64,000 bases of DNA from a virus (taxonomy: Duplodnaviria > Caudoviricetes): positions 1 through 64,000 of the IMG/VR virus record IMGVR_UViG_3300027282_000088; one strand, written 5' to 3'. Positions 32,596 to 50,435 of this stretch are shown one piece after another (the first letter of the stretch is position 1; each line of letters begins with the position of its first letter). The translations under genes were made by a program, and so were the position numbers. The notes below the pieces were generated by a model, which saw nothing but the letters and a program-made list of their open reading frames with translations, had not been told where the DNA came from and did no database searches.

Positions 32596-32598
32596 CGC

Positions 32599-33006
32599 AT
32601 GACCGTCAGCGCCAACATCTATAACCCGGCCACGGGTCAGATCACGGGCCACGTTGAGGCATCGGCAAGCACCATTGCCGCCAATGTCACGCCTGAGCGG
32701 GGCCTGTTTGTCGGTGCGCTGGCAGACACTGCGACACACTACATTGCGTCGGACCCGCTGCGCATCGAGGCGCGCCCGACGATCACGCCGCCTGCCACCA
32801 CGCAAGACACCGGCTGGGTTTATGACCTGTCCCTGCTACCCGTCGGGAGCGCGGTAACAGTGCGCAACGAAGTGGGCGACGAGCTCGTCATCATGAACCT
32901 GTCGGAGCCTCTGACGCTGGTCGATGCAGGCGTGTACGCCCTCGCCGTCGCCCCGCCGTTTCCGTGGGTCGGGTTTGATGCAGAGGTGGAGGTAAGCGAT
33001 GCCTGA
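32599..33006 (+). CDS. Tail-associated hypothetical protein
   Basis: Follows tail tip; coupled ORF. Confidence 0.6.
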   Translation: MTVSANIYNPATGQITGHVEASASTIAANVTPERGLFVGALADTATHYIASDPLRIEARPTITPPATTQDTGWVYDLSLLPVGSAVTVRNEVGDELVIMNLSEPLTLVDAGVYALAVAPPFPWVGFDAEVEVSDA

Positions 33007-33340
33007 GTTCCGCCAAAATACACCCCGCGCACAGGCCATCCGCGCCGCCCAAATCAAGGCGGACTGCAGGACCCTCATCCTCTCCGTGGCCGACTTGGAA
33101 ACACAGAGCAACATCGCCCAGGCGGGCATCCTGTTCTCGACAGCCACCATCAACGGCGCGGCGCGCGCCGACGCGCTGGCACTCGCAGGCCTCATCGAGG
33201 GCGACCAGGAGCGCGCCGTTGCATGGACCGCGTGGCGCAAGGCGATGCAGGCGGAGAGCCGTCGCGCCATCGAGGACGGGGATGCACCCGTCTGGCCAGA
33301 CGTACCAACCGGGGTCGCGGAATTCGCGGCCCGACACTGA
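32999..33340 (+). CDS. Tail fibre assembly-like protein
   Basis: C-terminal AWRKAM...PVWPDVP resembles fibre chaperones. Confidence 0.55.
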   Translation: MPEFRQNTPRAQAIRAAQIKADCRTLILSVADLETQSNIAQAGILFSTATINGAARADALALAGLIEGDQERAVAWTAWRKAMQAESRRAIEDGDAPVWPDVPTGVAEFAARH

Positions 33341-33373
33341 AACCACGAACACCCAAACCAAAAGGAAACTGAC

Positions 33374-33778
33374 ATGTCGACCTTCTCCACCTACCTCGAA
33401 GCCGCCCTGCTCAATCACGTTTTTCGCAACACCCCGCTGCCCAGCCCCGAGGCGGTGTATCTGGCGCTCTTTACGGCCGCGCCCACTGACGCAGGCGGCG
33501 GCACTGAAGTGACCGGCAGCGGCTATGCCCGCGCGGCCGTGACCTTTGCCGCGCCCGCTGCCGATCCGGAGGATGGCACCCGACAGGCGGTGCTCAACGG
33601 CCCGGACGTCGTGTTTTCCTCGACCCACGATCCGGTGCAGAGCGTTGTTGCCGTCGCCTATTACGATGCGGCGACAGGGGGCAATTTTCTGAGCTGGTCG
33701 GCAATCCCCCCCGCCGATCTGGGCGTGGGCGCGGAGATCAAGTTCCCGGCGTCGAAACTCAAGGAATTCCTTTCCTGA
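33374..33778 (+). CDS. Minor tail/fibre-associated protein
   Basis: YLEAALLNHVFR...YLALFTAAP...EVTGSGYAR motif. Confidence 0.7.
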   Translation: MSTFSTYLEAALLNHVFRNTPLPSPEAVYLALFTAAPTDAGGGTEVTGSGYARAAVTFAAPAADPEDGTRQAVLNGPDVVFSSTHDPVQSVVAVAYYDAATGGNFLSWSAIPPADLGVGAEIKFPASKLKEFLS

Positions 33779-33996
33779 TGAACCGCGTCGCCTATGAGAG
33801 CAACGGCGGCCCGGTGGTGGATGGCGTTCGCGCCATCCACGCCTGGAACGCGGCTCTCATGGCGGCAATCGACCTGCTCGAAAAATACGAGCGCCCGAAT
33901 GTGAGCCTCAAGACCTTAAGTTCGGACACGTTCGACGCGGGGCGGATGGATCTCGCGGCCTCACTCAAGCGGGATCTCCGCGCTCTCAAGCTGTGA
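33778..33996 (+). CDS. Hypothetical protein
   Basis: Coupled start/stop. Confidence 0.5.
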   Translation: MNRVAYESNGGPVVDGVRAIHAWNAALMAAIDLLEKYERPNVSLKTLSSDTFDAGRMDLAASLKRDLRALKL

Positions 33997-34018
33997 CATC
34001 ACGTAAGGAAGCCCAAAG

Positions 34019-35488
34019 ATGGCGCTGATCACCACGAATCTTAAAGCTCAGTTCGAGACAACCAACACGGTTGTCTCCCCGACGCTGTGGGTGGACGAAG
34101 TCGCCGGGATTGAGCTAGTCCAAGAACACCTTATGACTGCGCCAGTGTTGCGGACAGGCGAAGAGGGAACACCTACTGGAGCGAGTTATTTTCAGTTTGT
34201 CGGTAGCATTGACGGACTTGGGAATGACACCTTATACGACCACGATCTGCCAGACGGGGCGGAGCCTCGTACGATGTACATCGTTGCCCGTTATCCTAAC
34301 CAAGTGAACGCCGGTAACTTCAACGGCGTGATGTATGGCAATCCCTCTACGCGCCAGGCATTCGGTATGGTGATGAGCGGCACTGAAAAAGTGCTCACCG
34401 ACTTCTGGGCGGCCAGCTATGCGTCGGTCGATAGTTTCAACGATGACCTTTGGCATGTGCTAGCGGTCACTTTTGACGGGGAAGATGTTGAAGGGTTCAT
34501 CGACAACGTGAACCTGATGGGCGGCACCCCGGCCACGCTCAACACGGTACTGGAACGCCTCTATATCAATTACAAACTCAGCAACAACAGCGGTGCCTTC
34601 ATGGATTGTGCCGCTGTTTTGATCTATGCCGGGGCGCATAATCCGGCGCAGTTGGCTGAGACGAACGCCTATCTTCGCAACAAGTATATCGAGGAAATCC
34701 CTAGTGGCGGTGGGACGGTTGTTTCTGAGCGCGCCGCATCGAGTGGCGGCACCTCGGGTCTGAACGCCGCTCCTGTCTCCGTGCTCTCACGAACCGCATC
34801 GAACGGCGGCACATCGGGAGCTACGGCGGCCCCCGTTATCGTGCAGGGCCGCGCTGCGACCTCCGGCGGAACATCTGGTGCCGACGCGGCAGCCACTCTC
34901 GTCTCGGGTCGCGCTGGCGCATCCGGCGGCACCTCTGGCGCGTCTGCAAGCCCTGTCCGGATCGCCACGCGCAGCGCACCGGGCGGCGGCGCGTCGGGCT
35001 CGCCTGCGGCCCCTGTGCAGGTCGCGCTGCGCGGGGCATCAAGCGGCGGCGCGTCGGGATCCGAGGCCTTGCCCCAGGCGGGCACTCAAACAAGCCGCGG
35101 CGCCACGTCAGGAGGCGCATCTGGGTCTGAGGCTATGGCGGTCCGTGTGCAGACGCGCAGCGCCTCCAGCGGCGGGGTCTCTGGCACCGGGGCCATGGCC
35201 GTGCATGTCAGCGTCAAGGCGGCGGCGTCAGGAGGGCTGTCAGGGGCAGAGGCCATACCCGCCGCAGTCACACTGCGCGCGGCCAACGCTGGCGGTGTGT
35301 CCGGCCTCACAGCCGAACCCACGCTGATCGCGGCCCGGTCTGCGGTCTCGGGAGGCACATCCGGGTCAGAGGCCGCACCCGCTGACACAAGCCGGGTGGT
35401 GGATTTCAGGGCAACGGCGCTCTGGGATGAACCACGCTTTACCGCTCTTTGGGATGAGCCACGTTTTGTGGCCGAATGGAGAGACTGA
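34019..35488 (+). CDS. LamG/ConA-like domain plus 20-aa SGG repeat protein
   Basis: NDDLWHVLAVTFDG...GFIDN lectin-like motif; about 11 R-x-A-x-SGG-x-SG repeats. Confidence 0.68.
   Translation: MALITTNLKAQFETTNTVVSPTLWVDEVAGIELVQEHLMTAPVLRTGEEGTPTGASYFQFVGSIDGLGNDTLYDHDLPDGAEPRTMYIVARYPNQVNAGNFNGVMYGNPSTRQAFGMVMSGTEKVLTDFWAASYASVDSFNDDLWHVLAVTFDGEDVEGFIDNVNLMGGTPATLNTVLERLYINYKLSNNSGAFMDCAAVLIYAGAHNPAQLAETNAYLRNKYIEEIPSGGGTVVSERAASSGGTSGLNAAPVSVLSRTASNGGTSGATAAPVIVQGRAATSGGTSGADAAATLVSGRAGASGGTSGASASPVRIATRSAPGGGASGSPAAPVQVALRGASSGGASGSEALPQAGTQTSRGATSGGASGSEAMAVRVQTRSASSGGVSGTGAMAVHVSVKAAASGGLSGAEAIPAAVTLRAANAGGVSGLTAEPTLIAARSAVSGGTSGSEAAPADTSRVVDFRATALWDEPRFTALWDEPRFVAEWRD
34721..35388 (+). 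repeat. About 11 coding repeats of about 60 bp (20 aa)
   Basis: e.g. SERAASSGGTSGLNAAPVSV / LSRTASNGGTSGATAAPVIV. Confidence 0.8.
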
Positions 35489-35781
35489 TGGACGAGATGA
35501 AGACCTTCGAGAAAAACACCTATTCCGCCGTCATCACCTTTCTCAGGAAGGACAGCACCGCGCCCGATCTCAGCGGGGCCGCTGTAGAGGCATGGGCGCT
35601 CGGCGCTGGCCCCACCATCCCCTTGGGGGTGAGTGTCCTGGACGGCATGGCCGGCGTGGTGCGCGTGTTCTGGCCTGCGGAGACATTTGCGGCGGGGCTC
35701 TACGAGGTCCAGCTGCGCGCCTCGAAAGGCGGCAAGACGGAAACCTATGCGGCGCGCCTGACAGTCGCCCGGTCGATCTGA
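35488..35781 (+). CDS. BppU-like Ig-fold tail/baseplate protein
   Basis: DLSGAAV...GVVRVFWPAET...GLYEVQL pattern. Confidence 0.55.
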   Translation: MDEMKTFEKNTYSAVITFLRKDSTAPDLSGAAVEAWALGAGPTIPLGVSVLDGMAGVVRVFWPAETFAAGLYEVQLRASKGGKTETYAARLTVARSI

Positions 35782-35952
35782 AGACATCCCCCAATGTGTG
35801 GGGATTACCCGGTGGCCGTGAGCGGCCGCCCTACAGGAGGCCCCGAGCGTGCTGGAGGGCACGCCCGGGCACGCGGGGCCAGTCACCAAACATACCCCCG
35901 CCGACCAGAAACACCTCATGGCCGCTCCCTGCCCCAAGGGGGCGGCGGGACT

Positions 35953-36171
35953 ATGAGGCGATTCGATTTGGAAGGTCTAGAACTGCGTTGCTGCGCATGC
36001 AGCCGTTTGCTATTTAAATATCAGAGAGGGGCGCAAATATCCGGCGTCTCGATCAAATGCCCGCGCTGCCGGGCGATGAATATCCTGAGGCCAAGAGCCC
36101 TTCCCCAAACGCGCGATGCGCAGAGAGAAGGAGCCAAACTTGACCAGATCGACCACACTCCCGAAACCTGA
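35953..36171 (+). CDS. com: Com-family zinc-finger regulator
   Basis: RCCACSRLLF...IKCPRC aligns with Mu Com RCKNCNKLLF...IRCPRC; located at right end of late genes. Confidence 0.85.
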   Translation: MRRFDLEGLELRCCACSRLLFKYQRGAQISGVSIKCPRCRAMNILRPRALPQTRDAQREGAKLDQIDHTPET

Positions 36172-36322
36172 GCTGCCGCCCGGTGCGCCGGGCCTGCCCA
36201 AAGGCGTCCGCTACCGGCGGCAATATGGCGTCATCGTCCTCCTCGAGGACGAGGTGGCTCAAATCAACGCCTTCGGCCGGTTGCGCCGCCAAGGCTTCAA
36301 ATGCCGCGTGGTGGTCACATGA
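36140..36322 (+). CDS. 60-aa protein (TTG start inside com)
   Basis: GAAGGAG RBS then TTG; YGVIVLLEDEVAQINAFGRLRRQGFKCRVV; stop overlaps next ATG. Confidence 0.7.
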   Translation: MTRSTTLPKPELPPGAPGLPKGVRYRRQYGVIVLLEDEVAQINAFGRLRRQGFKCRVVVT

Positions 36323-37428
36323 AGCTCGCCATCCACCACGCCAGCCCCATCCCGGATACCTACCGCGCCGCCCGGGTCTCCAGCCTCTTCAACGTCGAGG
36401 GCGACGCGGATTTCCGCATCGAGGTCGAGGCCGATCTGGCAGCACAGCCCTGGCAGATAGGCCTCATCGTCGGCCCCTCTGGCAGCGGGAAATCCTCGCT
36501 CGCCCGCGAAGCCTTCGGAGCGGAGCTTGACCCGCGCCCGTGGCCCGAGGGCGCGCTGATCGACGCGATTGACCCCGAGGGCGAATTCGACGCCGTCGCG
36601 GCCGCCCTCTCCGCCGTGGGCCTCGGCACGGTGCCCAGCTGGCTGCGCCCCTATCCCCACCTCTCCACCGGCGAGCAGTTCCGGGCCGAGCTCGCGCGCA
36701 TTCTGGCCGAGCGGCCGAGCTTTGCCATTCTCGACGAGTTCACCTCGACCATTGACCGGCGCGTGGCCCAGATCGGGGCGGCAGCCTTTGCCAAGGCATG
36801 GCGGCGGGGCTCTGGCCAGTTCGTCGCCGTCACCTGTCACGAGGACGTCGTGTCCTGGTTGCAGCCCGATTGGGTGATCGACACCCGCCGGGCCGAGTTT
36901 CGCTGGAGGCGTCTTCGACGGGCACCCCGCATTGCCATGGACATTCACCAGACAGACGGCTCCTTCTGGCCCGCCTTTGAGCCGCATCACTACCTGAAGC
37001 TGCCCCGCATGATCGCGGCCAATTACTACGTGGGCTTCGTCGACGGCGCACCGGTGGCGCATCTGGCCGTCTCGACCCGGCCGGGGCTGGTCGAAGGCCG
37101 CGCCTGCCGCCTTGTCGTCATGCCTGAGTGGCAGGGCGCGGGGCTGGGGCTGCGCTTTCTCAACGAGGTTTGCGCGCTCTGGCGGCGCGGCGTGAACCGC
37201 TACGACAAACCGATGCCGATGCTGTTTCACACCTCGCATCCCGGCCTCGCCGCCGCCCTGCGCCGCGATCCCCTCTGGGCACAGGTTTCGGCCATCCTCT
37301 ATGCCGAGGCCAAGGAACGCAGCATGAAGACCCTCGCCGCCGCCCGGGCACGCAAAGGCCTCAAACCCGCCGGGAGCGGCTACGGCGGGCATTTCCGCGC
37401 GGTGCAGGGCTTTCGGTATGTCGAGTGA
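36319..37428 (+). CDS. ABC-type ATPase fused to GNAT acetyltransferase-like domain (mom position)
   Basis: GPSGSGKS, LSTGEQFR, ILDEF, VTCH; C-terminal RLVVMPEWQGAGLG GNAT motif A; no TM partner. Confidence 0.85.
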   Translation: MKLAIHHASPIPDTYRAARVSSLFNVEGDADFRIEVEADLAAQPWQIGLIVGPSGSGKSSLAREAFGAELDPRPWPEGALIDAIDPEGEFDAVAAALSAVGLGTVPSWLRPYPHLSTGEQFRAELARILAERPSFAILDEFTSTIDRRVAQIGAAAFAKAWRRGSGQFVAVTCHEDVVSWLQPDWVIDTRRAEFRWRRLRRAPRIAMDIHQTDGSFWPAFEPHHYLKLPRMIAANYYVGFVDGAPVAHLAVSTRPGLVEGRACRLVVMPEWQGAGLGLRFLNEVCALWRRGVNRYDKPMPMLFHTSHPGLAAALRRDPLWAQVSAILYAEAKERSMKTLAAARARKGLKPAGSGYGGHFRAVQGFRYVE

Positions 37429-37755
37429 GGGGGGTGTTAAAGGGGCGTTGAAACAGCCCCTCATGTTCCTTCCCAATGATCGGTGTCAGGCGGTAGCCGA
37501 TCGAGATCAAACTCCCAGCTAGCCGACGCAGCACGAGCAGGAAGGGCGGAAAGCGGAAGTTCGCTATGGGTGCGAGGCCTGAAAACCATAGTTTCTAGGC
37601 GGATATTCATTTGGCCAATCTCTTATGCCTTCGTGTTGGGCCAGCGATTGGCCCTCGACTTGGACTTGATGAGCAATCAGTCGCGACGTTTTTCTGATGT
37701 GCAACGGTCAAATTTGGTTTAGGGTCCCCCGAAAAGGCAGCGGCGAATTCGACCA

Positions 37756-38652
37756 ATGTACACAGATAGAACTCGCGACCACCACAAGGATGCGGCGATT
37801 GCTCGCCTTTTTTCGGCCGGCGTTGTTAGAGAACTTGCTGAAAAAGGCAGCTCTGCCAAGTTTAGCTCGTTGGTAAATCAAGCTGAACTATTCGAACTTC
37901 AAGAAGTTCGCACCGTCGGTGACGCGTTTGACTTTGGCTTCGCTCAATTACGCCGAAGTGGCCTCCGAAATGAATACATTTATCAGTCGGCTATAGTTCA
38001 AAACGTGCTCTTAGGTAAACATTCCCTGAAAACAGCCAGTATGGTGAGAGAGTTTCGAACTGGAGCTAGCAGAGCGGATGTTGTCATATTGAACGGCACA
38101 TCTACAGTCTATGAGGTTAAATCCGAACGTGACAGTCTCCAGAGACTTGAGAAACAACTAGAAGACTACGCCGATATATTTGCTCGTACGTATGTAATTG
38201 CTTCAGAACGTCACATCAACGCGATAAAAGAGCTCGCGCCGCTTCACGTAGGCGTTATGTATCTGAAAAGATGGAATAGCATAAGCACAGTTAGAGAAGC
38301 CGTCGATCGGCCAGACGAAGTTAAACCACTCAGCATTCTGGGGGCTCTTCGAAGAACTGAGGCAATTCGTATTCTCAAACACATAGGCAAGCCTGTACCT
38401 TCCGTGCCAAACACTCAGATGTTTAGCGCGCTTTCAGAACTCTACGAACGCCTTGATCCAAGAGAAGTCCATGACGCAATGGTTCAGGTGCTCAGGCAGA
38501 GCCGAACACAACATTCTTTCCAGAGACTCGTCGAAGATCTACCTTTATCGTTGCATGCCGCCGCATTGATGTACAACTTAAGGCTAAGTGACGGGGCAAA
38601 ACTGGTGCAAGCCATTAAAACTCCAATCGAACAATCAATATTTTGGAGTTAG
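37756..38652 (+). CDS. sce7726-family protein, PD-(D/E)XK-like
   Basis: RADVVILNGTSTVYEVKSERDSLQRL motif. Confidence 0.75.
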   Translation: MYTDRTRDHHKDAAIARLFSAGVVRELAEKGSSAKFSSLVNQAELFELQEVRTVGDAFDFGFAQLRRSGLRNEYIYQSAIVQNVLLGKHSLKTASMVREFRTGASRADVVILNGTSTVYEVKSERDSLQRLEKQLEDYADIFARTYVIASERHINAIKELAPLHVGVMYLKRWNSISTVREAVDRPDEVKPLSILGALRRTEAIRILKHIGKPVPSVPNTQMFSALSELYERLDPREVHDAMVQVLRQSRTQHSFQRLVEDLPLSLHAAALMYNLRLSDGAKLVQAIKTPIEQSIFWS

Positions 38653-38660
38653 GATGTTAA

Positions 38661-39608
38661 ATGTACTTTCCATACTTTCGCGGTAAGCAATTTGAGCTCA
38701 TCACTATTCGAGATACCGCAGAATTGCTGGCGAAGGCTGGTTTCATACCCATAATTGAACCCGTAAAAGAAGCACTGAAGGGGTTGACCCGTGCGCTTGA
38801 CGCGGTTTGTGAAAGCGGTGGGCATGCGATCGTAATAGTGAATCCTCAACATGGAAGCTTAGCTGGAAATGGAGCCGCAATATCGACTTTTCTCAAGGAA
38901 GGCTATCTTGAGACCGACAACGTAAGCGCTGGCATCTTATTGACGGATACGATGACGGTAATAGATGCCATGACGCTTTTTGAAGCTCATACAAATCATA
39001 GGCCGTATTTTATTCACTCGGGCTTTCTGCAGGAAAACGGCCTCGCAGAAAAACTTGGGGACGAGCTCAGTCATACACGACATGTCTTCATCGAACAGGC
39101 TAGCCCTGTATTATACCGAAAGAAGTTCAGCAGTGCTTCTCGAGTGCTGCTTCGGGATGGATTCAACAAACAGCGGAATGCTAGTTATCCTGCTGTTGAG
39201 CTTTTTTCAGATTTGCATGTAACATTTAATTCCGAGTTGGGTTTGAATGGTTTTGGAGACTTCCTAACTGTCGGGGATGACTATAGTGAGACAGGTGGAC
39301 CTGCTTATGCCGTCGCCATTCACATGACGTTCATTGATCCAGACAAAGACGATCAGATGTACGTGCGCCATTTTGTGTCAGATTCAAATAGCACTCCAAC
39401 GGATCCTGCTGGAAAGTTCGCAGAAGCGCTCTCTAAGCTGGTCACGAAGTTCAATCACGGAACATCAAACCTGTTTCATGGTAAGGCTTTATCTGAGTTC
39501 CTAGAGTTGCATGCAAAACAACACTTTCCAGGGCTGGGTCAGGTTAAAAAACTTTCGATGATCCATCACATTGAGACACTGGCAGACTATTTTTCTGAGG
39601 CGAATTGA
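38661..39608 (+). CDS. sce7725-family protein
   Basis: MYFPYFRGKQFEL start, GFGDFLTVG...GGPAYAVAIH, HFPGLGQVKKLSMIHH. Confidence 0.78.
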   Translation: MYFPYFRGKQFELITIRDTAELLAKAGFIPIIEPVKEALKGLTRALDAVCESGGHAIVIVNPQHGSLAGNGAAISTFLKEGYLETDNVSAGILLTDTMTVIDAMTLFEAHTNHRPYFIHSGFLQENGLAEKLGDELSHTRHVFIEQASPVLYRKKFSSASRVLLRDGFNKQRNASYPAVELFSDLHVTFNSELGLNGFGDFLTVGDDYSETGGPAYAVAIHMTFIDPDKDDQMYVRHFVSDSNSTPTDPAGKFAEALSKLVTKFNHGTSNLFHGKALSEFLELHAKQHFPGLGQVKKLSMIHHIETLADYFSEAN

Positions 39609-40672
39609 TGCCAAATAAATGCTGCCCAAACTGTTTTGGGGACCGTGGACTCGAAAAACACCTGTTTCAATTTCTGGCTACAGAATTGGCGAAAGGGGAT
39701 TGTAATTATTGCGGAGACCCTTCGGACAAACTTGTTGAACCGTCGGAGCTTTCTGATGTTTTTGAGCTGCTAGTCGAATCTTATGAAGAAGCTGAAGGCG
39801 GTGTAAGTCTTGTGGCAAACTTCAAAAAGGACTGGGGGCTTTTCTCTCATGCCAAAATGGACGAAGCACACGCCAAAGAACTACTTTCCGATATTTTAGA
39901 TGATGGAGAGATCGTTCGAAAGTCGTTTAGACCCTTGACCGCGCCGGATGACTCTAAGGTCGGTGATTGGCTTGAACTTCGTCAAGAACTTCGCTTCAAG
40001 AATAGGTATTTTCTAGACGAAAAAATTAAGGAAGAACGGTTGAAGCTTTTGCTCGAGTTCTTGCTTTCAGCACCGCTAGAAAAGATCTGGTTTCGAGCCA
40101 GGATCTCGCCTGATAATCAGCCTTTCGATGCCCAATCGATGGGAGCGCCACCAAAAGGTTCCGCTTCCCACGGAAGAGCCAACCCCGCAGGCATTCCGTA
40201 TCTCTATCTTGCATCTGATGAGAACACAGCGATTTCGGAAATACGCCCTCATACGGGTGAATTCGCGACCGTTGCAGAATTTGAGCTGCGTGAAGGACTT
40301 ACAATCGTCGATTTACGATCACCTAAGACACTCGTCTCTCCTTTTATCTGTGGATCTTCCGATGAGATTGTTCAGCTTAGGGCAGACTTGCCGTTCCTAG
40401 AAAGTCTGGGCCACGAACTCACTCGTCCGGTGCTGCCCCGCAGCGCCGCAACTGACTACGTTCCAAGTCAATATCTCTGCGAGTTTATAAAGAAAAAAGG
40501 ATTTGACGGTGTACTTTATACGAGTTCTGTGGGGACGGGAAAGAACTTGGCCCTCTTCGATACCGAAGCGGCAAATTGCATACGAGTATCCGTTTTTAGT
40601 GTCGCTAGCGTTGCAGTCACCGCTCATGAGTTTCGCACACAGGTTCGCCCGTTGGAGCGCGTTGAAAATTAG
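39608..40672 (+). CDS. RES-domain protein with N-terminal Cys motif
   Basis: WFRAR, GRANPAGIPYLY, AISEIRP, YVPSQYLCEFIK, FDGVLYTSS; N-terminal CPNC...CNYC. Confidence 0.88.
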   Translation: MPNKCCPNCFGDRGLEKHLFQFLATELAKGDCNYCGDPSDKLVEPSELSDVFELLVESYEEAEGGVSLVANFKKDWGLFSHAKMDEAHAKELLSDILDDGEIVRKSFRPLTAPDDSKVGDWLELRQELRFKNRYFLDEKIKEERLKLLLEFLLSAPLEKIWFRARISPDNQPFDAQSMGAPPKGSASHGRANPAGIPYLYLASDENTAISEIRPHTGEFATVAEFELREGLTIVDLRSPKTLVSPFICGSSDEIVQLRADLPFLESLGHELTRPVLPRSAATDYVPSQYLCEFIKKKGFDGVLYTSSVGTGKNLALFDTEAANCIRVSVFSVASVAVTAHEFRTQVRPLERVEN

Positions 40673-40813
40673 AAATAGATCTGGGGCGCGATAGGCTCGG
40701 TTTTACACTCTCGGCGAATGTCCGGTGTGACGTTCCGGGTCGCAGCATCTGGGTTGATCGACGAACGGTCGCTTTGGGCCGGACGTCACAGTCACCAATT
40801 TCTAAAAACCCCG

Positions 40814-40863
40814 TTGCTGTAAACTTCACTGTAATTCACTGCAAACTTCGCTGTCACGCTACA
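40814..40863 (-). repeat. Right end of prophage 1: terminal CA and two tandem transposase-site-like repeats
   Basis: Reverse complement TGTAGCGTGACAGCGAAGTTTGCAGT GAATTACAGTGAAGTTTACAGC (22-bp period). Confidence 0.82.
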
Positions 40864-40868
40864 ACAGT
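40864..40868. other. 5-bp spacer ACAGT between the two prophage ends (probable shared target duplication)
   Basis: CTACA|ACAGT|TGTAG; 5 bp is the Mu-family target duplication length. Confidence 0.75.
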
Positions 40869-41002
40869 TGTAGGGTTACACTCTAGTTTACAGTCATGCC
40901 GGAAGACCCAGAATGAGGCGGGATGAAGCCGGATAGGTCAATGAAATAAGGCATATTTCTGCGCGGACGCGGGGCTGCGGTTGGCATGGGTGAAGTTTGC
41001 AG
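40869..41002 (+). repeat. Left end of prophage 2: L1-like site, about 90-bp gap, L2-like site
   Basis: TGTAGGGTTACACTCTAGTTTACAGTCA matches the right end at 20/28 positions; GGTGAAGTTTGCAGT ending at 41002. Confidence 0.78.
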
Positions 41003-41312
41003 TAAAGTGCGAGAAGCGGGCGAAAACGGCGATGTTGGCGTTTTCGGGGCCACTGCGAACTGCGAAGCGCAAAATGTGCGAAACCCTATTGAAATATGGT
41101 TCAAACGGCTCTGAGAGGGGTGTTTAAGGGGGCATTTAACGGCCCCCGGCACGTCCGGAACTGGGACCAAGTCCGCCCAGTTCTAATTTGCCGTCCCACT
41201 TCCATGTTTCCGCTAATGAAATCAAATACATAGAGATTTCTGAAGTAGGATAAACGGAGAATAGAAGTGGGACGGTTTTTCTAGGCCTAAGGAACGCTAA
41301 AAGGTAGGTTCT

Positions 41313-41690
41313 TCAACGCGCATGAAGCTCACCGCGTTCACACGACCCGGCCCAGTCTGACGCAAATCCGTCGATCACTTCACGATAGACATCAGTTGGC
41401 ATCGTGCCTCCCTTAACCATTATGGGGCGGCCATAGGCATCGCGGATAATCCGTTCATAAACTGAACGCTGCGACGCAGTACGAAAAACACTTGGGCTGG
41501 TGTATTCTTGTAAAGTCTCTTCGAGAGACACCAGCCCGTACTGGCTACTACCGATTGCAACGCGGGCCACGAGAAATACAAGTTGGCAGTCGCCCTCATA
41601 GTCTTGATGGCTAACTTGCGCCGACGCAGAGTACGGGGCGGCGGCCACAAACATCGCCGTAAGAGCGGCACGGCATAGAAGCGTTCGCAC
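41313..41690 (-). CDS. Secreted/periplasmic hypothetical protein
   Basis: GGAGG RBS then GTG; signal peptide ending ASA-Q; AT-richer; downstream of repressor. Confidence 0.62.
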   Translation of the reverse strand: MRTLLCRAALTAMFVAAAPYSASAQVSHQDYEGDCQLVFLVARVAIGSSQYGLVSLEETLQEYTSPSVFRTASQRSVYERIIRDAYGRPIMVKGGTMPTDVYREVIDGFASDWAGSCERGELHAR

Positions 41691-41763
41691 GTTGAAACCT
41701 CCAAGTTTATCGTTGTGGCCTACCACGCATGTGCCGGTCAGGCAATGTCGCCCAGGATACGAC

Positions 41764-42255
41764 TTAGGGATCAACGGAATTGTGCAGGCGGGTTTTAAGC
41801 AGTTGCCGGATGTCCGGCAGCAGAGCCTCTAGCTCGTCGCCGTCCTCGGGATTTTCCATGCGCGAGAGCAGCTCGTTGTAGAACCATACGCCTTCCTTAA
41901 AATGCGTATCGCTAGGAAGGTCGAGGCCGAGATCGGCGTAGACCTTGCGGACTTCCGTTCCGCAGATCATCAGGATCATCGGATCGAGGCGCGCGCGCGT
42001 TGGCGGTGGCGGTTCGGCGGCGACGGGGTCGCCTTCGCCATAGAGAATGTAATCGGCTCGCAGGCCAAAGCGCCCTTGCAGCCGGATCAGGAAGTTGCGC
42101 GACGGTTCGCTCCGTCCGGCTTCGATATCACCAATATATCCTTGGCTCACCTCCATCGTAGAACCAAGGGCGCGTTGGGACAGCCCCTGCTTCTTTCTCC
42201 AGAGCGCAAGCCTTTTACCGGGATCCGCTGACATTCTGATAAAACCTATTGACAT
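41764..42255 (-). CDS. XRE-family HTH repressor without peptidase domain
   Basis: GLSQRALGSTMEVSQGYIGDIEAGRSEP HTH; start may be 42234. Confidence 0.85.
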   Translation of the reverse strand: MSIGFIRMSADPGKRLALWRKKQGLSQRALGSTMEVSQGYIGDIEAGRSEPSRNFLIRLQGRFGLRADYILYGEGDPVAAEPPPPTRARLDPMILMICGTEVRKVYADLGLDLPSDTHFKEGVWFYNELLSRMENPEDGDELEALLPDIRQLLKTRLHNSVDP

Positions 42256-42301
42256 GAACGTATTTCACGTTCAAAACTAAGCTTGAACGTGAAATACGGT
42301 C
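42249..42301. promoter_or_regulatory. Prophage 2 immunity region: TTGACA -35 and two 17-bp operators
   Basis: GAACGTATTTCACGTTC (42256-42272) and inverted GAACGTGAAATACGGTC (42285-42301). Confidence 0.72.
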
Positions 42302-42329
42302 ATTTTGTGACCTACTAGGGAAAAAGCAT

Positions 42330-42590
42330 ATGACAGAAAAAGTCACAACAATCCAGCCGGGACCCGTCTTCTATGACGTGTTCCTAGGGTATCTGCGGGT
42401 GATCGGCACCAACCTGAAGGATTGGTGCGTGCCGCATGGGGTGACGCCGACCAATGCCAAGAGCGCTGCCACCGGCGGATGGAACGGGACCAAGGCCCGC
42501 GCCCTGCGCCAAAAGATGCTTGACGAGGTGGGCGAGGAGACCTTTGCGCGGCTCTATGCCGACCGCATGCGGCGGGAGGACGCCGCATGA
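42330..42590 (+). CDS. Ner/Cro-like protein
   Basis: First gene divergent from repressor. Confidence 0.65.
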   Translation: MTEKVTTIQPGPVFYDVFLGYLRVIGTNLKDWCVPHGVTPTNAKSAATGGWNGTKARALRQKMLDEVGEETFARLYADRMRREDAA

Positions 42591-42790
42591 GCGGTATCAA
42601 GCTAGGCCGTGGCATGCGTGGGCGACTACGCGAAGTGCGCGACCCCGAACGCAACCTTCCTCCGGGCAGCGGCCTTGCTATCGCTATGATGCTCGCGTTC
42701 GTCTTCTGGGCCGTGGTCGCTTTCGGCCTGTCCTATGGGGTGCTGAGCCGAGACGCCGCCCCTGAAACACCCCCTTCAACACAGGATTAA
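42587..42790 (+). CDS. Small membrane protein
   Basis: Homologue of 4105-4275. Confidence 0.62.
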   Translation: MSGIKLGRGMRGRLREVRDPERNLPPGSGLAIAMMLAFVFWAVVAFGLSYGVLSRDAAPETPPSTQD

Positions 42791-42794
42791 TGCG

Positions 42795-43022
42795 ATGCGG
42801 ATTTCCGATCTGATCCCCGACGCGGGCCAGTTGCAGGCCGAGATCGCGGCCATCCCGCAAGTGCAGCGTGTGGCGCTGGCCTTGCAGCTGGTACGCGACA
42901 TCGACGAGCCCTGCTGTGCGCTGCCGTTGATGCGCCTGAGCCGCTTGGCAGAGGATCATCACCTGTCGATCCGCAAGGAAGCGTTCATGCGGGAAAATGA
43001 CCTGCGGAGGGTGCATCGTTGA
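42795..43022 (+). CDS. Hypothetical early protein
   Basis: Homologue of 4272-4487. Confidence 0.68.
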   Translation: MRISDLIPDAGQLQAEIAAIPQVQRVALALQLVRDIDEPCCALPLMRLSRLAEDHHLSIRKEAFMRENDLRRVHR

Positions 43023-43207
43023 AACCCCTGTTCAAACCCGTTTCCAAGATCCGCGCGCGTGCTGGCCTGTGCGCTGCGCGGTACCTGCGCCCCGGCTGTG
43101 CCCAGTCTGCTTGCTCCGGCCGGGGTGCTTTTTCTGTCATCGGCGATGTGGTGGGAGTGCTGGCGCTGTTCGTCCTGCTCTTCGGCGTCGCGTGCTTTGG
43201 AGGGTGA
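43019..43207 (+). CDS. Hypothetical early protein
   Basis: Homologue of 4484-4672. Confidence 0.6.
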   Translation: MKPLFKPVSKIRARAGLCAARYLRPGCAQSACSGRGAFSVIGDVVGVLALFVLLFGVACFGG

Positions 43208-43211
43208 TCGC

Positions 43212-43475
43212 ATGAGCCTGCATGTTCAAAAAACGGGCCGCGGCTACGCCGTTTTCGACGGCAAGGAGCGCGTGTCCGGCACGTTCAGCAACCGCGATAT
43301 CGCCCTGCGCGCCCAAGACCGGATGGACGTCGAGGCGGTTAAGTCACAGCACGCCCGCAACCGTCCTTGCCTCACCTGCGGCACCGAGTTCTGGTCGACG
43401 GGGCTGGGGCACCGCATGTGTGGCAACTGCCGTTCCGGTTGCGCCGGGCTCGATGCTCAGATGCTGGGCTGCTGA
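43212..43475 (+). CDS. Small zinc-ribbon protein
   Basis: Homologue of 4678-4938. Confidence 0.68.
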   Translation: MSLHVQKTGRGYAVFDGKERVSGTFSNRDIALRAQDRMDVEAVKSQHARNRPCLTCGTEFWSTGLGHRMCGNCRSGCAGLDAQMLGC

Positions 43476-43699
43476 TGCACCACGCGCCGCTCACCTCGCC
43501 CCGCCTGCAACGGGTTCTGGCCGTCCTCAAGGACGGTCGCCCGCATACCACGCGCGAGATCGTGCGCCGGGCGCATGTGGTGGCGGTGAACAGTTGCATT
43601 TCTGAACTGCGCGCGAACGGGGCGGAAATCCTCTGCACCCGCGAACGGAAAGGCGACCGGCTGATCTGCCGGTACACAATGACGAAGGCCCCAGAATGA
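43475..43699 (+). CDS. Small winged-helix protein
   Basis: RLQRVLAVLKDGRPHTTREI...ISELR; absent from prophage 1. Confidence 0.65.
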   Translation: MHHAPLTSPRLQRVLAVLKDGRPHTTREIVRRAHVVAVNSCISELRANGAEILCTRERKGDRLICRYTMTKAPE

Positions 43700-43908
43700 C
43701 CAAAACAGACAAATTGCACAAATTTGACAATCTCGCTCAGCTTGCCTTGGAAAAGGCCAATGCGATCAGGTTCGTTGCGCGCCAGCTGGCGAACGGGGAC
43801 CCCTTGTACATGGCCCTCCCAGACGTGCCGGTTTTCCTGATCAAGAGCGATATCGAAGCGCTTAAGGGGATACTAGAGGCCCTCGAAAAGGCGCTCGACA
43901 ATGAGTGA
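43696..43908 (+). CDS. Hypothetical protein
   Basis: Coupled ORF; absent from prophage 1. Confidence 0.55.
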   Translation: MTKTDKLHKFDNLAQLALEKANAIRFVARQLANGDPLYMALPDVPVFLIKSDIEALKGILEALEKALDNE

Positions 43909-44773
43909 AATGCGCCTGATCGAGACACGGGAGATGGCTGTTGCTGAAATCGTCATAGAGGACCGGCTGCGTCCTGTAGACGAGGTTGGTATCTCGGCCA
44001 TCCTCATGACAATCGACGAAGGTGGCTCTACCACCGATCCGATTGATGTGCGCCGCGTACGACGCAAAGGCACCGTAGTCTATCGCCTTATTGACGGCGC
44101 GCATCGGATTGAGGTCGCAAAGCGGCTCGGGAACGTCACGATCCTTGCGTCTGTCTACGACGGGACGGACGCCGATGCCCGCCTTATGGAGATCGAGCGC
44201 AATCTGGCCCGTGCTGAGATGAAGCCGATAGATCGCGCGGTCTTTCTGCTGGAGTACAAAGAGGCGTACGAAAAGAAGCACCCCGAAGCCCGCGCGGCGA
44301 TTGGTGAGGCTCTTGTTGCCAAGCGGTGGGATACGACGGGCACGATGCCCGTCGTATCTTTCGCCGTGAAAGTCGGGCAAATGACGGGACAGGATGAGAG
44401 CACGGTTCGGCGTCAGATCAGGGCTGTGAAGGCTCTGGAGGCGGATGAAGTTCGTGCAATCCAGTTGGCACCCCAATACCTCGGATACAAGGATATAGCA
44501 GAAATCGGCAAGATTTCTGATCCTGGAGAACGTAGCGAAGTCATGAAGGCGCTCTCTTCCGGGGAGGCAAAGACAGTCAACGCTGCCCGTAAGGCTTACC
44601 GTGTTGCACGGGGCGAAGCCCCGGCCCCGGCAAGTCCCAAGGACGCAACCCTGTCACGCCTCTTGGACGCATGGGACCGCGCGGGCAAGCGCGAGCGCAT
44701 GGCGTTTCTGGAGGAGCGCGGCGCGGAGGTTGCGACGCTGTTCGGGGAACTTGACCAAGGGGATGCAGCATGA
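43901..44773 (+). CDS. ParB/Srx N-terminal domain protein
   Basis: YRLIDGAHRIEVAKRLG motif. Confidence 0.82.
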   Translation: MSEMRLIETREMAVAEIVIEDRLRPVDEVGISAILMTIDEGGSTTDPIDVRRVRRKGTVVYRLIDGAHRIEVAKRLGNVTILASVYDGTDADARLMEIERNLARAEMKPIDRAVFLLEYKEAYEKKHPEARAAIGEALVAKRWDTTGTMPVVSFAVKVGQMTGQDESTVRRQIRAVKALEADEVRAIQLAPQYLGYKDIAEIGKISDPGERSEVMKALSSGEAKTVNAARKAYRVARGEAPAPASPKDATLSRLLDAWDRAGKRERMAFLEERGAEVATLFGELDQGDAA

Positions 44774-46896
44774 CAGGCCCGGCCCCTGCGCAGGAATGGT
44801 GGAGCGCGGCAGAGCTGGCGGAGGCCGGGCTTCCGGATCTCCCGAGCACAAAGCGCAAGATCAACGAACTGGCACAGCGTGATGGCTGGGCGCGACACGC
44901 GGGGAAGGCCCGGCGGCGCAAGGGGGTAGGCGGCGGCATCGAATATCACTGGAGCGTTCTGCCATTGCGCGCCCGCATGCGGCTAAGTTCCAGCCTGGTC
45001 AAAACCGCACCCGTTCAGCAGGGGCAAGACGCGGCATGGGATCGATATGCGGCGGCGGGTGACAAGGCCCGCGCTGAAGCCGAGGCGCGGCTGGCAGCCA
45101 TCGCCGAGGTCGAGTTACTGGAAGGGGCCGGGCTGACACGGTCGGCGGCGGTGCGGGAGGTCGCACGCAAGTCGGGACGCGCCGAGAAATCGCTCTGGAA
45201 TTATCTCTCGCACATCGAGGGCGTCGCACGCGCCGACCGGCTGGCCTATCTGATCGACGGGCGGGCGTTGCGGCGGGCACAAGGATCCCGACTGGATACA
45301 GACCCGGCCTTTCTGGCGCTCGTGCGCAGTGACTGGCTGCGCCCGTCCCAGCCCTCTCTCACAAGCTGCTATGACCGTGCAGTGCGCGTCTGGACGTCCG
45401 AGCGACGCAACAGTGTCGTGCCGCCGCTGCATCAGGTGCGGCGCTGGCTCAAGTCCAGCGTATCGGCCCCCACTGAAATCTACTTGCGCAGGGGCGAAGA
45501 GGCATTGCGCCGCCTCTATCCCGCGCAGGTCCGCAGCAAGGCATTCATGACCCCGCTCGAATGCGTGCAGGGCGACTATCACAAGTTCGACGTCTTCGTG
45601 GACTGGCCCGGCTACGACAAGCCCGTGCGCCCGCAGATGATGGTCTGGTCGGACGTCTATTCCGGCAAACTCTTGGCGTGGCGACTATCCCCGACGGCCA
45701 ACAGCCACACCGTGCAGCTGGTGACCGGCGATCTGATCCGGACCTATGGCATCCCGCAGTCGGTTCTGATCGACAACGGCCGGGAATTCGCCGCCAAGGC
45801 GATGACGGGCGGCACGCCGACCCGGTTTCGGTTCAAGATCACCGACGAAGATATCCCCGGCCTCCTTCCGCTCCTAGGTGTCGAAATCCATTGGGCCACG
45901 CCCTATTCGGGGCAATCCAAGCCCATCGAGCGCGCGTTTCGCGATCTCTGCGACCGGGTGGCCAAGCACCCGGCCTTTGACGGGGCCTATACCGGCAACA
46001 GACCGGAAGCCAAACCGGAGGACTATGGCTCCCGCGCCGTCCCGCTCGACGAGTTCCGCCTCGTATTGGAGGATGAGCTCGAGCATCACAACGCCCGGCC
46101 CGGGCGGCGCAGTGAAGTGGCCATGGGACGCTCGTTCAATGAGGTGTTCAACGCGGGCTATGCCAAGGCGACAGTCAAGCGCGCGACGGACGAACAGCTG
46201 CGCATGTGGCTCCTGCGCGCCGAGGGCGTGCGGGCCAAGACCGGAAACGGCGCGCTGAAGCTCTATGACACGGAATACTGGTCAGAGTGGATGTACCGGA
46301 TCGCAGGCGAAAAGGTGGTTGCGCGGTTCGACGCGGATGATTTGGGAGCCGGGCTCGAGGTCTATGATCTCACGGGCCGCTATTTGGGCCATGCCGCCTG
46401 TCTCGAGGCCGCCAAATTCATCGACGTCGAAGCCGCACGCGACCATGCGCGCAAGCGCGGGGCGTGGGCGAAGGCACAGAAGGCCGAGGCCAAGGCTGCG
46501 CGCGAGTTGACGGCAGCCGAGGTGGCAGCGCGGGTGCGTGCGGCCTCTGGCCTCGCAGCCAGTGAACCCTTGCCAGAAGCGCAAGTTCATCAGCTGGTGA
46601 CGCCGCACGCCGCCGCACCCAAGCGGCGTCGGCGCGCTCAAAGTGCCGAGGAGGTCGAGCATCTGGCCGAGATCGAGGCCCGCGTGATGCGGCTTGAGGA
46701 GCACCGCGTGCGGCCCGCCGAGCCCGCCGACGACGATCCCGAAATCATGTTCGCCCGCGCCCGCGTCCTTGAGCGCGCACAGGCGGACGGAGAGGCGCTG
46801 ACACAGGCGCAGGCCGACTGGCTGGCCGACTATCAGCAGAGTTCAGACTATCGCGCCAAACTACGCATGGCGCGTCTCTTTGGCACCCAAGAATAA
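44770..46896 (+). CDS. Mu-type DDE transposase A
   Basis: Same motifs as 5771-7894, with many substitutions. Confidence 0.95.
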   Translation: MTGPAPAQEWWSAAELAEAGLPDLPSTKRKINELAQRDGWARHAGKARRRKGVGGGIEYHWSVLPLRARMRLSSSLVKTAPVQQGQDAAWDRYAAAGDKARAEAEARLAAIAEVELLEGAGLTRSAAVREVARKSGRAEKSLWNYLSHIEGVARADRLAYLIDGRALRRAQGSRLDTDPAFLALVRSDWLRPSQPSLTSCYDRAVRVWTSERRNSVVPPLHQVRRWLKSSVSAPTEIYLRRGEEALRRLYPAQVRSKAFMTPLECVQGDYHKFDVFVDWPGYDKPVRPQMMVWSDVYSGKLLAWRLSPTANSHTVQLVTGDLIRTYGIPQSVLIDNGREFAAKAMTGGTPTRFRFKITDEDIPGLLPLLGVEIHWATPYSGQSKPIERAFRDLCDRVAKHPAFDGAYTGNRPEAKPEDYGSRAVPLDEFRLVLEDELEHHNARPGRRSEVAMGRSFNEVFNAGYAKATVKRATDEQLRMWLLRAEGVRAKTGNGALKLYDTEYWSEWMYRIAGEKVVARFDADDLGAGLEVYDLTGRYLGHAACLEAAKFIDVEAARDHARKRGAWAKAQKAEAKAARELTAAEVAARVRAASGLAASEPLPEAQVHQLVTPHAAAPKRRRRAQSAEEVEHLAEIEARVMRLEEHRVRPAEPADDDPEIMFARARVLERAQADGEALTQAQADWLADYQQSSDYRAKLRMARLFGTQE

Positions 46897-46914
46897 GAAG
46901 AAAAGGAGAGCAGA

Positions 46915-47712
46915 ATGACACCCTCTATTGCGCCCCTGCGGAATGTCGCGGCGCTGATTGGCCTGGTCGAACGAGTTCAGACCCGCGCCTTTGGTCTGCC
47001 CGGCATGGCCACGTTCTACGGCCCCTCCGGCTGGGGCAAGACTACCGCCGTGACGGTCGCGGCCAACGAGTATCAGGCCCATGTTGTCCAGGTCAAAGAC
47101 TGCTGGACACCGACGTATTTCGCGCAGGCAGTTTTGCGGGAGATTGGCCTTACGCCGGTGCGCGGCGTGCCCGCGATGGTGGACGCCATCGGCGCGCAGC
47201 TCGCCCGGACCGACCGGCCGCTCATCATCGATGACGCGCAATATCTCCTGCGCAAGCGGATGATCGAGCTTGCCCGCGACATCTACGAGAGCAGTCAGGC
47301 CCCGATTATTCTGGTCGGTGAGGAAAAGTTGCCGCAGGATTTGACCCGCTGGGAGAACATTCACAACCGGCAACTTGCATGGGAGCCCGCTCTTGCCTGC
47401 AATATCAGCGACGCGCAGAAGCTGGCCTCGATCTATGCGGCCGGCATCGACGTCGCGGACGATCTTCTGACCTCCATCGTTGACGCCTCGGGCGGCTCGA
47501 TCCGTCGCGTGGCGATCAACCTCGCACGTGCCAAGGAACTCGCCCACGGGCGGGGTCGCCGGTTGGCGGATCTTGATCTATGGGGCAACCGGGTCTTCGA
47601 GACAGGCCAGCCTCCGGCAGTACGTCGCGTCGATGATTTCCGCCCGGCGGCGGCGCGTGGTCCGGATACGGTCGTGCCGCTTGGGCCGGGCGGAAAGGCG
47701 GTGCGCGCATGA
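46915..47712 (+). CDS. Transposition protein B, AAA+ ATPase
   Basis: GPSGWGKT, LIIDDAQ. Confidence 0.92.
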   Translation: MTPSIAPLRNVAALIGLVERVQTRAFGLPGMATFYGPSGWGKTTAVTVAANEYQAHVVQVKDCWTPTYFAQAVLREIGLTPVRGVPAMVDAIGAQLARTDRPLIIDDAQYLLRKRMIELARDIYESSQAPIILVGEEKLPQDLTRWENIHNRQLAWEPALACNISDAQKLASIYAAGIDVADDLLTSIVDASGGSIRRVAINLARAKELAHGRGRRLADLDLWGNRVFETGQPPAVRRVDDFRPAAARGPDTVVPLGPGGKAVRA

Positions 47713-48239
47713 GCGACCTCTTTGCGCAGATGTGGGCAGAGGTGAAAGGCCTCGAGGAGTTCGACTGGGCCGAGGTGGCCCGGCGCGGGTGCAGCCGCGA
47801 GACCGCCGTCCGCTATATCCGCCACTGGATGGACGCAGGCCAGATCCGCGTGACGCGGATCGCGCGTAATGGCAAGCGCTGGTATGCCCCGGCCCATATG
47901 CCCCAGCCCGGCCCACAGCCGGTTACAGGCGAGGCCACGCCCGAGGGCAACATGTGGCGGGCCATGCGCCATCTGCGCCATTTCAACCCGACCGATGTGG
48001 CGGCCCATGCCAATGCCGGGGGCGTCGAGGTCACTGTCGAGAAGGCCCGTGCCTATTGCCGCCAGCTACTGGCCTCCAACCACCTGAAGGTACGCCAGAC
48101 GGCCATCCCCGGCCGTCGTGAGGCGCTCTACCAGATAATCGAGGATACTGGCCCACGTGCCCCCAAGCCCGTGCGATTGGCGGGCATCCTTGATCCCAAC
48201 ACGGGCGATTTCAGCCCGGCGAAAGGCGGTGCGGCATGA
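47709..48239 (+). CDS. Winged-helix-like hypothetical protein
   Basis: Homologue of 8707-9240. Confidence 0.7.
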   Translation: MSDLFAQMWAEVKGLEEFDWAEVARRGCSRETAVRYIRHWMDAGQIRVTRIARNGKRWYAPAHMPQPGPQPVTGEATPEGNMWRAMRHLRHFNPTDVAAHANAGGVEVTVEKARAYCRQLLASNHLKVRQTAIPGRREALYQIIEDTGPRAPKPVRLAGILDPNTGDFSPAKGGAA

Positions 48240-48610
48240 GCGCGCTGGACACCGCCCGCGAGTTCTGGGGCGAGGCCTTGCCCGACTGGGTGGCCGCTCT
48301 GGCCGAGGCCTGCGACCGGGATAGCCAGAACAAGGTGGCGCGGCGGATGGAGCGCAGTGCGTCGCTGGTCTCGAGCATCCTGCGCAACCGCTATCAGGCG
48401 GATACGAGCCTCGTTGAGGATCTCGTGCGCGGGCATTTCATGAAGGCGACCGTTGCCTGCCCCGTCCAGGGCGAAATCGGGCTACAGGTCTGCCGCAAAT
48501 GGCGCGGCAAGGCGCGTCATTTCGAGAACGTCAACTCGCAGACCGTCACTATGTACCGCGCCTGCAACCGGTGCCCGGTCCACATGGGGGACGACGATGC
48601 AGAAGCATAG
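48236..48610 (+). CDS. HTH / Cys-rich hypothetical protein
   Basis: Homologue of 9237-9611. Confidence 0.7.
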   Translation: MSALDTAREFWGEALPDWVAALAEACDRDSQNKVARRMERSASLVSSILRNRYQADTSLVEDLVRGHFMKATVACPVQGEIGLQVCRKWRGKARHFENVNSQTVTMYRACNRCPVHMGDDDAEA

Positions 48611-48944
48611 CCTCCTTCTTCCGGCGATGCTGGACATGGCGCGGCGTGGCAAGCGCCCCTGCGAGATCGCCGAGTTGACCGGCATGTCCCCCAATGCCGT
48701 CTCGTGTCGACTGAGCTACTGGCGCAAGCGCGGCGTGAACGTGGCACCCGCCCGTTCCGGCCCCCTGCCCGCACGCCGCAAGATTTGCGCCACGGGCGTG
48801 GCCGAGGATTTGCGCGACCTGCTCAAGGTGCACGCCGATCTGCGCGGCGTGACCGTGGGCGTGCTGGCGCGCGACATCCTCGACCGCGCCGCACGCGACA
48901 ATCTGATCGACGCCGTTCTCGACGACAAGGAGACCGACGCATGA
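48597..48944 (+). CDS. HTH-containing hypothetical protein
   Basis: EIAELTGMSPNAV HTH; shares C-terminus RDNLIDA.LDDKETDA with 9598-9948. Confidence 0.65.
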   Translation: MQKHSLLLPAMLDMARRGKRPCEIAELTGMSPNAVSCRLSYWRKRGVNVAPARSGPLPARRKICATGVAEDLRDLLKVHADLRGVTVGVLARDILDRAARDNLIDAVLDDKETDA

Positions 48945-49141: not shown

Positions 49142-49142
49142 A

Positions 49143-49793: not shown

Positions 49794-49797
49794 GGGT

Positions 49798-49986: not shown

Positions 49987-49989
49987 GAG

Positions 49990-50432: not shown

Positions 50433-50435
50433 GCA

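Follow-up and report, generated by a model that had tools for sequence, protein, structure and literature searches.

Stacked Mu-type prophages in a Roseovarius-like bacterium point to insertion directed by the right end of a resident prophage

Mu, Tn7 and Tn3-type elements are textbook cases of target immunity, in which an element avoids DNA close to its own ends, and in Mu it is MuB that confers immunity near the ends. Mu-type transposition prefers target pentamers of the form N-Y-S-R-N. Other transposable elements are steered to particular sites or ends. Tn7-like elements form tandem arrays at attTn7, where successive elements enter one regenerated position head-to-tail, and Tn7 is guided by TnsD to the host gene glmS. 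Several insertion sequences target the ends of other elements or of their own kind, as in IR-targeting and the (IS30)2 joints of IS30, the tandems of IS21, the insertion of IS911 near IRR-like sequences and that of IS231A into the ends of Tn4430. The Tn5053/Tn402 'res hunters' use TniA and TniB, which are relatives of MuA and MuB, need TniQ, and insert in one orientation at a resolvase-bound res site. For Mu, DNA near the ends is a poor target according to Adzuma and Mizuuchi (1988), as cited in PMC5977238. In the Mu-like phage Ab30, 0.4% of 13 million insertions lay within the phage itself, and the insertion hotspots adjoin host repeat elements (BIME) and not phage ends (PMC5977238). Our literature searches found no published account of Mu-like prophage stacks with abutting ends or of end-directed insertion by a transposable phage, and the paper on the isolated phage vB_ThpS-P1 (PMC5488378) mentions neither a stacked arrangement nor end targeting.

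In this study, we analyzed a 64,000-nt stretch of viral DNA (the window), which corresponds to bases 6800-70799 of a 79,888-bp virus record assembled from porewater and subsurface short-read metagenomes. The window holds most of one Mu-like prophage (P1) and the first part of another (P2), and a remnant of an older prophage lies upstream of it. We read the locus as a chromosomal stack of Mu-type prophages in a Roseovarius-like bacterium, which arose by successive 5-bp-staggered insertions aimed beside the outermost right (R) terminus, and assign this reading a probability of about 0.8.

The locus resembles each of the described systems in part. Its phages share with Mu the MuA-type DDE transposase, the MuB-like ATPase, TG...CA ends, the L1-gap-L2/R1-R2 layout of the end repeats, 5-bp duplications, and portal and MuF genes, but here the resident R terminus appears to be the preferred landing point, which is the opposite of Mu target immunity. 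That these phages also encode a MuB-like protein is a point we count against the tip-targeting reading. As with Tn7, the array is head-to-tail and grows through a regenerated position; unlike Tn7, its guide would be the R end of the resident element itself, stacks are seen at more than one host locus and in more than one genus, and no TnsD or other Tns-type families were found among the scanned ORFs. The likeness to IS end targeting lies in a DDE transposase that inserts beside or into a terminal repeat, with a spacer as long as the target duplication. However, IS elements measure 1-2 kb, whereas here different 40-kb phages with a MuB-type target selector form viable prophage stacks. Tn5053/Tn402 likewise represent a MuA/MuB-type system that is steered in one orientation, there to a protein-bound DNA site, while the target here is a Mu-type R end; the scanned ORFs included no TniQ-like gene.

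The junction between P1 and P2

The features on which the analysis rests are as follows (window coordinates unless stated otherwise).

1..40863, plus strand: prophage 1 (P1), a Mu-like siphovirus, complete, 44.7 kb, with ACAGT at both ends
G000:C1 2974, i.e. 3,826 bp upstream of the window start: left (L) end of P1
5771..7894, plus strand: P1 MuA-type transposase (tblastn 708/708 aa, 85% identical to the P2 copy)
7913..8710, plus strand: P1 MuB-like AAA+ transposition ATPase (265/265 aa, 87.5% identical to the P2 copy)
40805..40863, plus strand: P1 right end (attR), two transposase-site repeats 22 bp apart, terminal ...CGCTACA
40864..40868, no strand: ACAGT, single target-duplication copy, right flank of P1 and left flank of P2
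40869..41290, plus strand: P2 left end (attL), L1 at 40869-40896, L2 motif at 40992-41002, then a conserved leader of ~420 bp
40869..64000, plus strand: prophage 2 (P2), continues past the window; R end found in other assemblies of the same population
41764..42234, minus strand: P2 HTH repressor-like gene (156 aa as called in public assemblies)
44770..46896, plus strand: P2 MuA-type transposase (DDE_2 9e-45, HTH_Tnp_Mu_1, HTH_Tnp_Mu_2, Mu-transpos_C)
46915..47712, plus strand: P2 MuB-like AAA+ transposition ATPase (AAA_22 4e-14; phrog_296 'DNA transposition protein' 1e-57)

Judged from their sequences, P1 and P2 are true Mu-type phages: the DDE transposase carries end-binding domains and is encoded next to the MuB-like ATPase, the termini are TG...CA, R1 and R2 are adjacent while a gap separates L1 from L2, insertion is flanked by 5-bp duplications, and P1 has Mu-type structural genes (Portal_Mu 8e-111, Phage_Mu_F 2e-11, tail tube and tape measure). 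The MuF protein of P1 bears a C-terminal PBECR3 nuclease-like domain (window 17401-18693). The closest isolated phage is Thiobacimonas phage vB_ThpS-P1 (KT381864), whose MuA is 61% identical and whose R end is nearly identical (95% to that of P1). P1 and P2 are colinear at a DNA identity of only 75-89% and hence represent two related but distinct phages and not a duplication.

The joint reads ...gctgtcacgctaca / ACAGT / tgtagggttacac..., with the R terminus of P1 at 40863, the L terminus of P2 at 40869 and the pentamer between them (40864-40868). This confirms a preliminary description of the DNA, which had proposed that two Mu-like prophages abut over exactly one 5-bp site. The same description had noted that the 28-mers of the R end and L end agree at 20 of 28 positions, a level that random pairs of 28-mers from the window reach in 2e-5 of trials, and this identity was borne out. 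It had also reported a motif that occurs twice in tandem at the R end and again about 90 bp inside the L end. We recovered all three copies: GAAGTTTRCAG has exactly three matches in 64 kb, each at the joint (40817-40827 and 40839-40849 on the minus strand, 40992-41002 on the plus strand), the R-side copies being spaced 22 bp and the third lying 123 bp inside the L end, ~95 bp past site L1.

The termini of P1 and P2 are correctly placed. The record of vB_ThpS-P1 terminates with ...gctgtcacgctaca and begins exactly at TGTTGGGTGACAC, and the L end of P2 is homologous to the L ends of P1, vB_ThpS-P1 and phage B of Roseovarius sp. 217. Solitary relatives carry 5-bp duplications directly outside the termini in this placement, namely CCCCG at either end of a 39-kb R. 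mucosus prophage and CCGGG around one in R. ramblicola; the corresponding pentamers are CACGC for phage B of sp. 217 and ACAGT for P1 and P2. Another parse, in which the R end finishes ...CTACAACA, was rejected because only ...CTACA plus 5 bp agrees with the solitary relatives and with the flanks of P2 itself.

P1, P2 and vB_ThpS-P1 each have, ~300-420 bp in from their L ends, inverted copies of AAGTGGGAC and a GAACTGGG/CCCAGTTC hairpin (window 41150-41290; L001 3260-3400; L003 39170-39310). These could be operators or a structured leader.

The array beyond the window

If the 5-bp spacer resulted from a second element re-using the same target pentamer, as had been proposed from the window, ACAGT should also be present on the outer flanks of the two prophages. 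We found it both to the left of P1's L end and to the right of P2's R end. A second, identical 16-mer junction, CTACAACAGTTGTAGG, is located at G000:C1 2964, 3.8 kb upstream of the window, where it joins the R end of the remnant to the L end of P1, which is preceded by ACAGT. Synteny with Roseovarius sp. 217, R. mucosus and a MAG identified contig positions 1 to ~1114 as host DNA and ~1115-2968 as the remnant, which contains a 3' stub of a phage ABC-GNAT gene, a fasciclin-like ORF (its translated 3' end was judged by eye) and an intact R end, with neither L end nor transposase. The record stops inside P2's tail gene, and the R end of P2 was reached by walking contigs that are 100% identical to the record's end. 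In six assemblies this end reads ...gttgtcacgctaca / ACAGT / CACGCTACA cccc..tttgcaatagtt and is followed by host acyl-CoA dehydrogenase genes. The array consists of host / 1.85-kb remnant / ACAGT / P1 / ACAGT / P2 / ACAGT / 9-bp R-tip leftover / host, and its three copies of ACAGT are identical.

The locus was also found without P2. One assembly (JGI 3300027640; L091, a 56.9-kb contig) shows the R end of P1, one ACAGT, CACGCTACA and host DNA, which provides the empty site for the second insertion. Together with the threefold ACAGT, this allele supports re-use of the pentamer by the second element, although it could in principle also represent precise loss of P2 between the 16-bp direct repeats formed by the R tip and ACAGT. 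The read depth of the P1 right arm versus the P2 left arm was 52.9 versus 14.6, 228.6 versus 129.8 and 407 versus 360 in three runs; the greater depth of P1 fits the presence of P2 in only part of the population, as does the P2-free allele.

We then compared the locus with Roseovarius sp. 217, to which contig positions 1-3457 are 96% identical through the remnant and into the L end of the next phage. The spacer at the orthologous junction between remnant and phage is ACAGT here but CACGC in sp. 217. There, phage B, which is ~87% identical to P1, has CACGC on both flanks, and TACA and then the same host site adjoin the right copy. The same base beside an orthologous R end was thus entered by different phages with different pentamers, i.e., in separate insertion events, and the recurrent use of this position that the preliminary description had envisaged was indeed found, with a duplicated pentamer of its own. 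R ends are present at this one locus in sp. 217, R. mucosus, two MAGs and the present population. A scan of 401 genomes of the family yielded no case besides sp. 217 again.

Beyond the window, the right arm of P2 (L095 13289-17159) encodes, ahead of the R end, ABC-GNAT, a BLUF photoreceptor and a Fic-domain protein, with a second ABC-GNAT 3' stub and two small ORFs between the last two. The arm looks layered, as though made of stacked and collapsed ends.

Recurrence of abutting ends across the phage clade

We searched whole genomes, IMG/VR records and metagenomes with patterns of the R end, and with MuA followed by a profile of the L end. Recurrent use extended beyond the Roseovarius locus, with seven to eight further R-5bp-L junctions with other pentamers in unrelated records. 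The spacers at which an L end follows the R terminus by exactly 5 bp, and the L ends at other distances from an R tip, are listed below.

Spacer ACAGT, present array: L end exactly 5 bp after the R terminus
Spacer CACGC, Roseovarius sp. 217: L end exactly 5 bp after the R terminus
Spacer ACAAC, host-derived provirus record carrying vB_ThpS-P1: L end of the phage adjoins the R terminus of another prophage (90-96% identical)
Spacer AACGC, L032: exact 5 bp
Spacer TACAA, G407: exact 5 bp
Spacer AACAG, L068: exact 5 bp, behind a leftover tip
Spacer AAAAA, L069: exact 5 bp, behind a leftover tip
Spacer CACAC, L103: exact 5 bp
Spacer GTCAC, L111: exact 5 bp
Offset +30, L116: intact L end
Offset +8, L031: intact L end
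Offset +3, L066: intact L end
Offset +1, G407, second joint: intact L end
Offset -3, L064: intact L end
Offset -4, G406, ...GCTGTCACGC / TGTAGGG: intact L end
Offset -18, L071: intact L end

Nine distinct abutting pentamers were thus found, with seven further L ends at -18 to +30 bp of an R tip. L060, in which an L end stands straight after a degenerate R-end-like sequence, was left out of the count because an offset could not be assigned. Since several cases share the one Roseovarius locus and are not fully independent, we counted distinct pentamers as separate events, and the nine different pentamers therefore reflect at least nine events at the abutting position. The abutting 5-bp position of the preliminary description holds up as the commonest one but not as the only one.

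The L end is whole in every case while the R end is cut in some, which identifies the right-hand phage as the incomer. All cases found are tandem, with no R-R (tail-to-tail) or L-L (head-to-head) pair among them. The single orientation may be mechanistic, with L pairing with R, or may reflect the loss of 40-kb inverted repeats through instability. Ordinary host DNA flanks about a dozen related prophage ends, which indicates a strong preference and not an obligate site; IMG/VR provirus records favour ends whose neighbour is also viral, and this inflates the stacked fraction. By comparison only, the near-random choice of target with avoidance of resident ends is a behaviour that this clade does not display, though such behaviour does not define a Mu-like phage.

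Many R ends are trailed by copies of the R tip of 6-23 bp, e.g. CTACA GCTACA GTCACGCTACA GTCACGCTACA in R. ramblicola. These leftovers correspond to the right-side product of insertion inside a resident tip, and G406 shows the matching left-side product. No corresponding L-tip leftovers or truncated L ends were seen among the examined ends.

Across the clade, these junctions argue for a strong preference of incoming phages to land in tandem, on or a few bases from a resident R terminus. As far as end products can tell, the joints establish that the insertions are staggered by 5 bp and positioned by the resident R terminus and not by host sequence; the targeting itself we infer from products that survived selection. 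The preliminary description had suggested site-selective or end-directed integration, and our results support this, with the refinement that targeting tracks the phage R end and not a host site. The abutting pentamers are A/C-rich and, by eye, fit N-Y-S-R-N more poorly than the duplications around solitary prophages (CCGGG, TCCGT, ACCAT and others), which would agree with the tip and not the pentamer setting the position.

Three records show further arrangements of ends. In G407 (IMGVR_UViG_647533124_000002, reverse-complement 4864-17587), three elements stand in a row, and the middle one, of 12.7 kb, has L and R ends and gave no match to MuA; it resembles a mini-Mu-like unit that arose by deletion within a stack. 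The related 41-kb contig G409 (IMGVR_UViG_3300037589_000052) has 102-bp direct terminal repeats and, within bases 200-400, an internal R end, a 23-bp leftover, AACAG and an L end, which makes it either a tandem of one phage or a circular form. At a contig end in R. ramblicola (G003 C1 138300-138477), an L end is followed by several inverted R-tip fragments, a pattern that may be an assembly bubble at the repeated phage end.

Alternative explanations and possible mechanism

About 45 bp are identical across the junctions, and strain variants or separate prophages could have been misjoined there during assembly. The short-read metagenome source, the breaks of Logan k=31 contigs in the shared node and the depths of P1 and P2, which are not 1:1, would all fit such an artefact. 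However, the P2-free allele accounts for the unequal depth, and the Logan contigs end inside the node, none with 31 nt on both sides, so that they neither bridge nor break the junction. Four independent assemblies from different samples span the joint (ENA ERZ937901, with a 38-kb MEGAHIT k127 contig, and JGI 3300030426, 3300030429 and 3300002468). Their contigs, which were retrieved with the encoded proteins starting at ATG 39608 and 42234, extend from the RES gene in the right arm of P1 via ACAGT to the repressor and MuA of P2 and are 100% identical to the window, over 1.8 kb in three assemblies and over 1.47 kb in L094, P1- and P2-specific DNA included. The isolate genome of Roseovarius sp. 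217 shows this architecture too, as do proviruses whose IMG-style genome ids suggest isolates. With unique sequence bridged on either side, the junction is real, and the artefact, which had been raised as a concern at the outset, is extremely improbable. An R-5bp-L joint could also be the closed form of a single phage, either a concatemer or a transposon circle as in IS3/IS30, and G409 with its terminal repeats and internal joint indeed assembles as a circle or same-phage tandem. Both ends of an (IS)2-type joint come from the same element, but at remnant/P1 and at P1/P2 (75-89% identity) the abutted ends belong to different elements. Moreover, host DNA borders the stack on both sides and each member lies between two copies of its pentamer, the outcome expected from insertion, which leaves a circular or concatemeric origin very unlikely.

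A host hotspot would be a Roseovarius intergenic site upstream of ...CCCCCCTTTGCAATAGTT... that draws Mu-like phages irrespective of a resident end, and the R ends shared at this locus by several Roseovarius genomes and MAGs are what it would produce. However, descent from a single old insertion accounts for the shared locus, and new phages sit at the R tip and not at a fixed host base, the landing point being displaced by ~45 kb and then by ~85 kb from the left-hand host DNA. R-L junctions also occur in other genera and at other loci (the host of vB_ThpS-P1, G406, G407, L103, L111, L031 and L032), and we regard a hotspot as improbable. The ~45 bp of identity, together with the palindromic 15-mer CTACAAC.GTTGTAG at the junctions, could instead have served Campbell-type homologous recombination between end sequences, or a site-specific recombinase acting on an attP-like joint. 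Yet the spacers vary from case to case while they match on the two flanks of each member (ACAGT three times, CACGC twice), which is the signature of a staggered cut. The junctions have no constant core as in site-specific polylysogeny, since the sequence of the spacer varies between cases and sometimes its length does too; R ends truncated at -3, -4 and -18 are unlike a fixed crossover site; and no integrase family was found among the scanned ORFs, a subset of all ORFs. Recombination of either kind thus has very little chance of being the source of the array.

Under R-end-directed transposition, the simplest order of events would be remnant, P1, P2. An old prophage would have decayed to the 1.85-kb remnant with its R end retained, P1 would have entered at the ACAGT beside this R end, and P2 would have entered the regenerated ACAGT beside the R end of P1 in part of the population. 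Every insertion duplicates the pentamer, so that the landing site is remade at the new outer R end and the stack extends rightwards. The incoming complex would read the resident R end as an oriented signal, via the terminal sequence or the transposase at R1-R2; candidate guides are transposase bound at R1-R2 or DNA bending there. Where the L end sits in its most frequent place, the bond attacked on the top strand would be the one that MuA cuts at that end, which suggests that the tip is held in or near the active site. Homologous recombination between stacked relatives could subsequently collapse arrays, leaving short R-tip leftovers and layered, cargo-rich right arms.

There might even be a dedicated target pathway that reverses immunity, in which the incoming MuA complex recognises a resident R tip, perhaps a 9-23-bp leftover, in an oriented manner and centres strand transfer on the MuA-cut bond. 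We put this forward tentatively, as a proposal slightly more apt to fail than to hold. If true, the resident end could be a safe harbour for an incoming phage, a competitor could be disabled when the hit falls inside its tip (-3, -4, -18), and recombination among stacked phages could yield mosaic genomes and stepwise gain of cargo at right ends.

MuA/MuB phages that home to a resident right end would contradict the target immunity expected of MuA/MuB systems. Such homing would offer a natural system for steering a Mu-type transpososome to a defined base. It would also explain prophage stacks and the islands of defence genes and other cargo at Mu-like right ends in marine Rhodobacterales (RES, NACHT, BLUF and Fic here), and would constitute a new phage-phage interaction, in which a phage lands beside a competitor or cuts off its tip. 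The idea is directly testable, as the isolated phage vB_ThpS-P1 and its cultured host exist.

P1 carries cargo in both arms. Just inside its R end is a three-gene low-GC block (window 37756-40672), of which the first gene matches Phage_P4_cII in public gene calls and the last encodes a RES-domain protein. The repressor adjoins the L end in Mu; in P1, ~7 kb of lower-GC cargo lies between the L end and the repressor (G000:C1 2974-9880, the right part being window 1-3081). This left cargo comprises one weakly permease-like ORF, one with HEAT repeats, one with an Excalibur domain and one for a NACHT-pentapeptide protein of ~1000 aa, which looks like a defence NLR.
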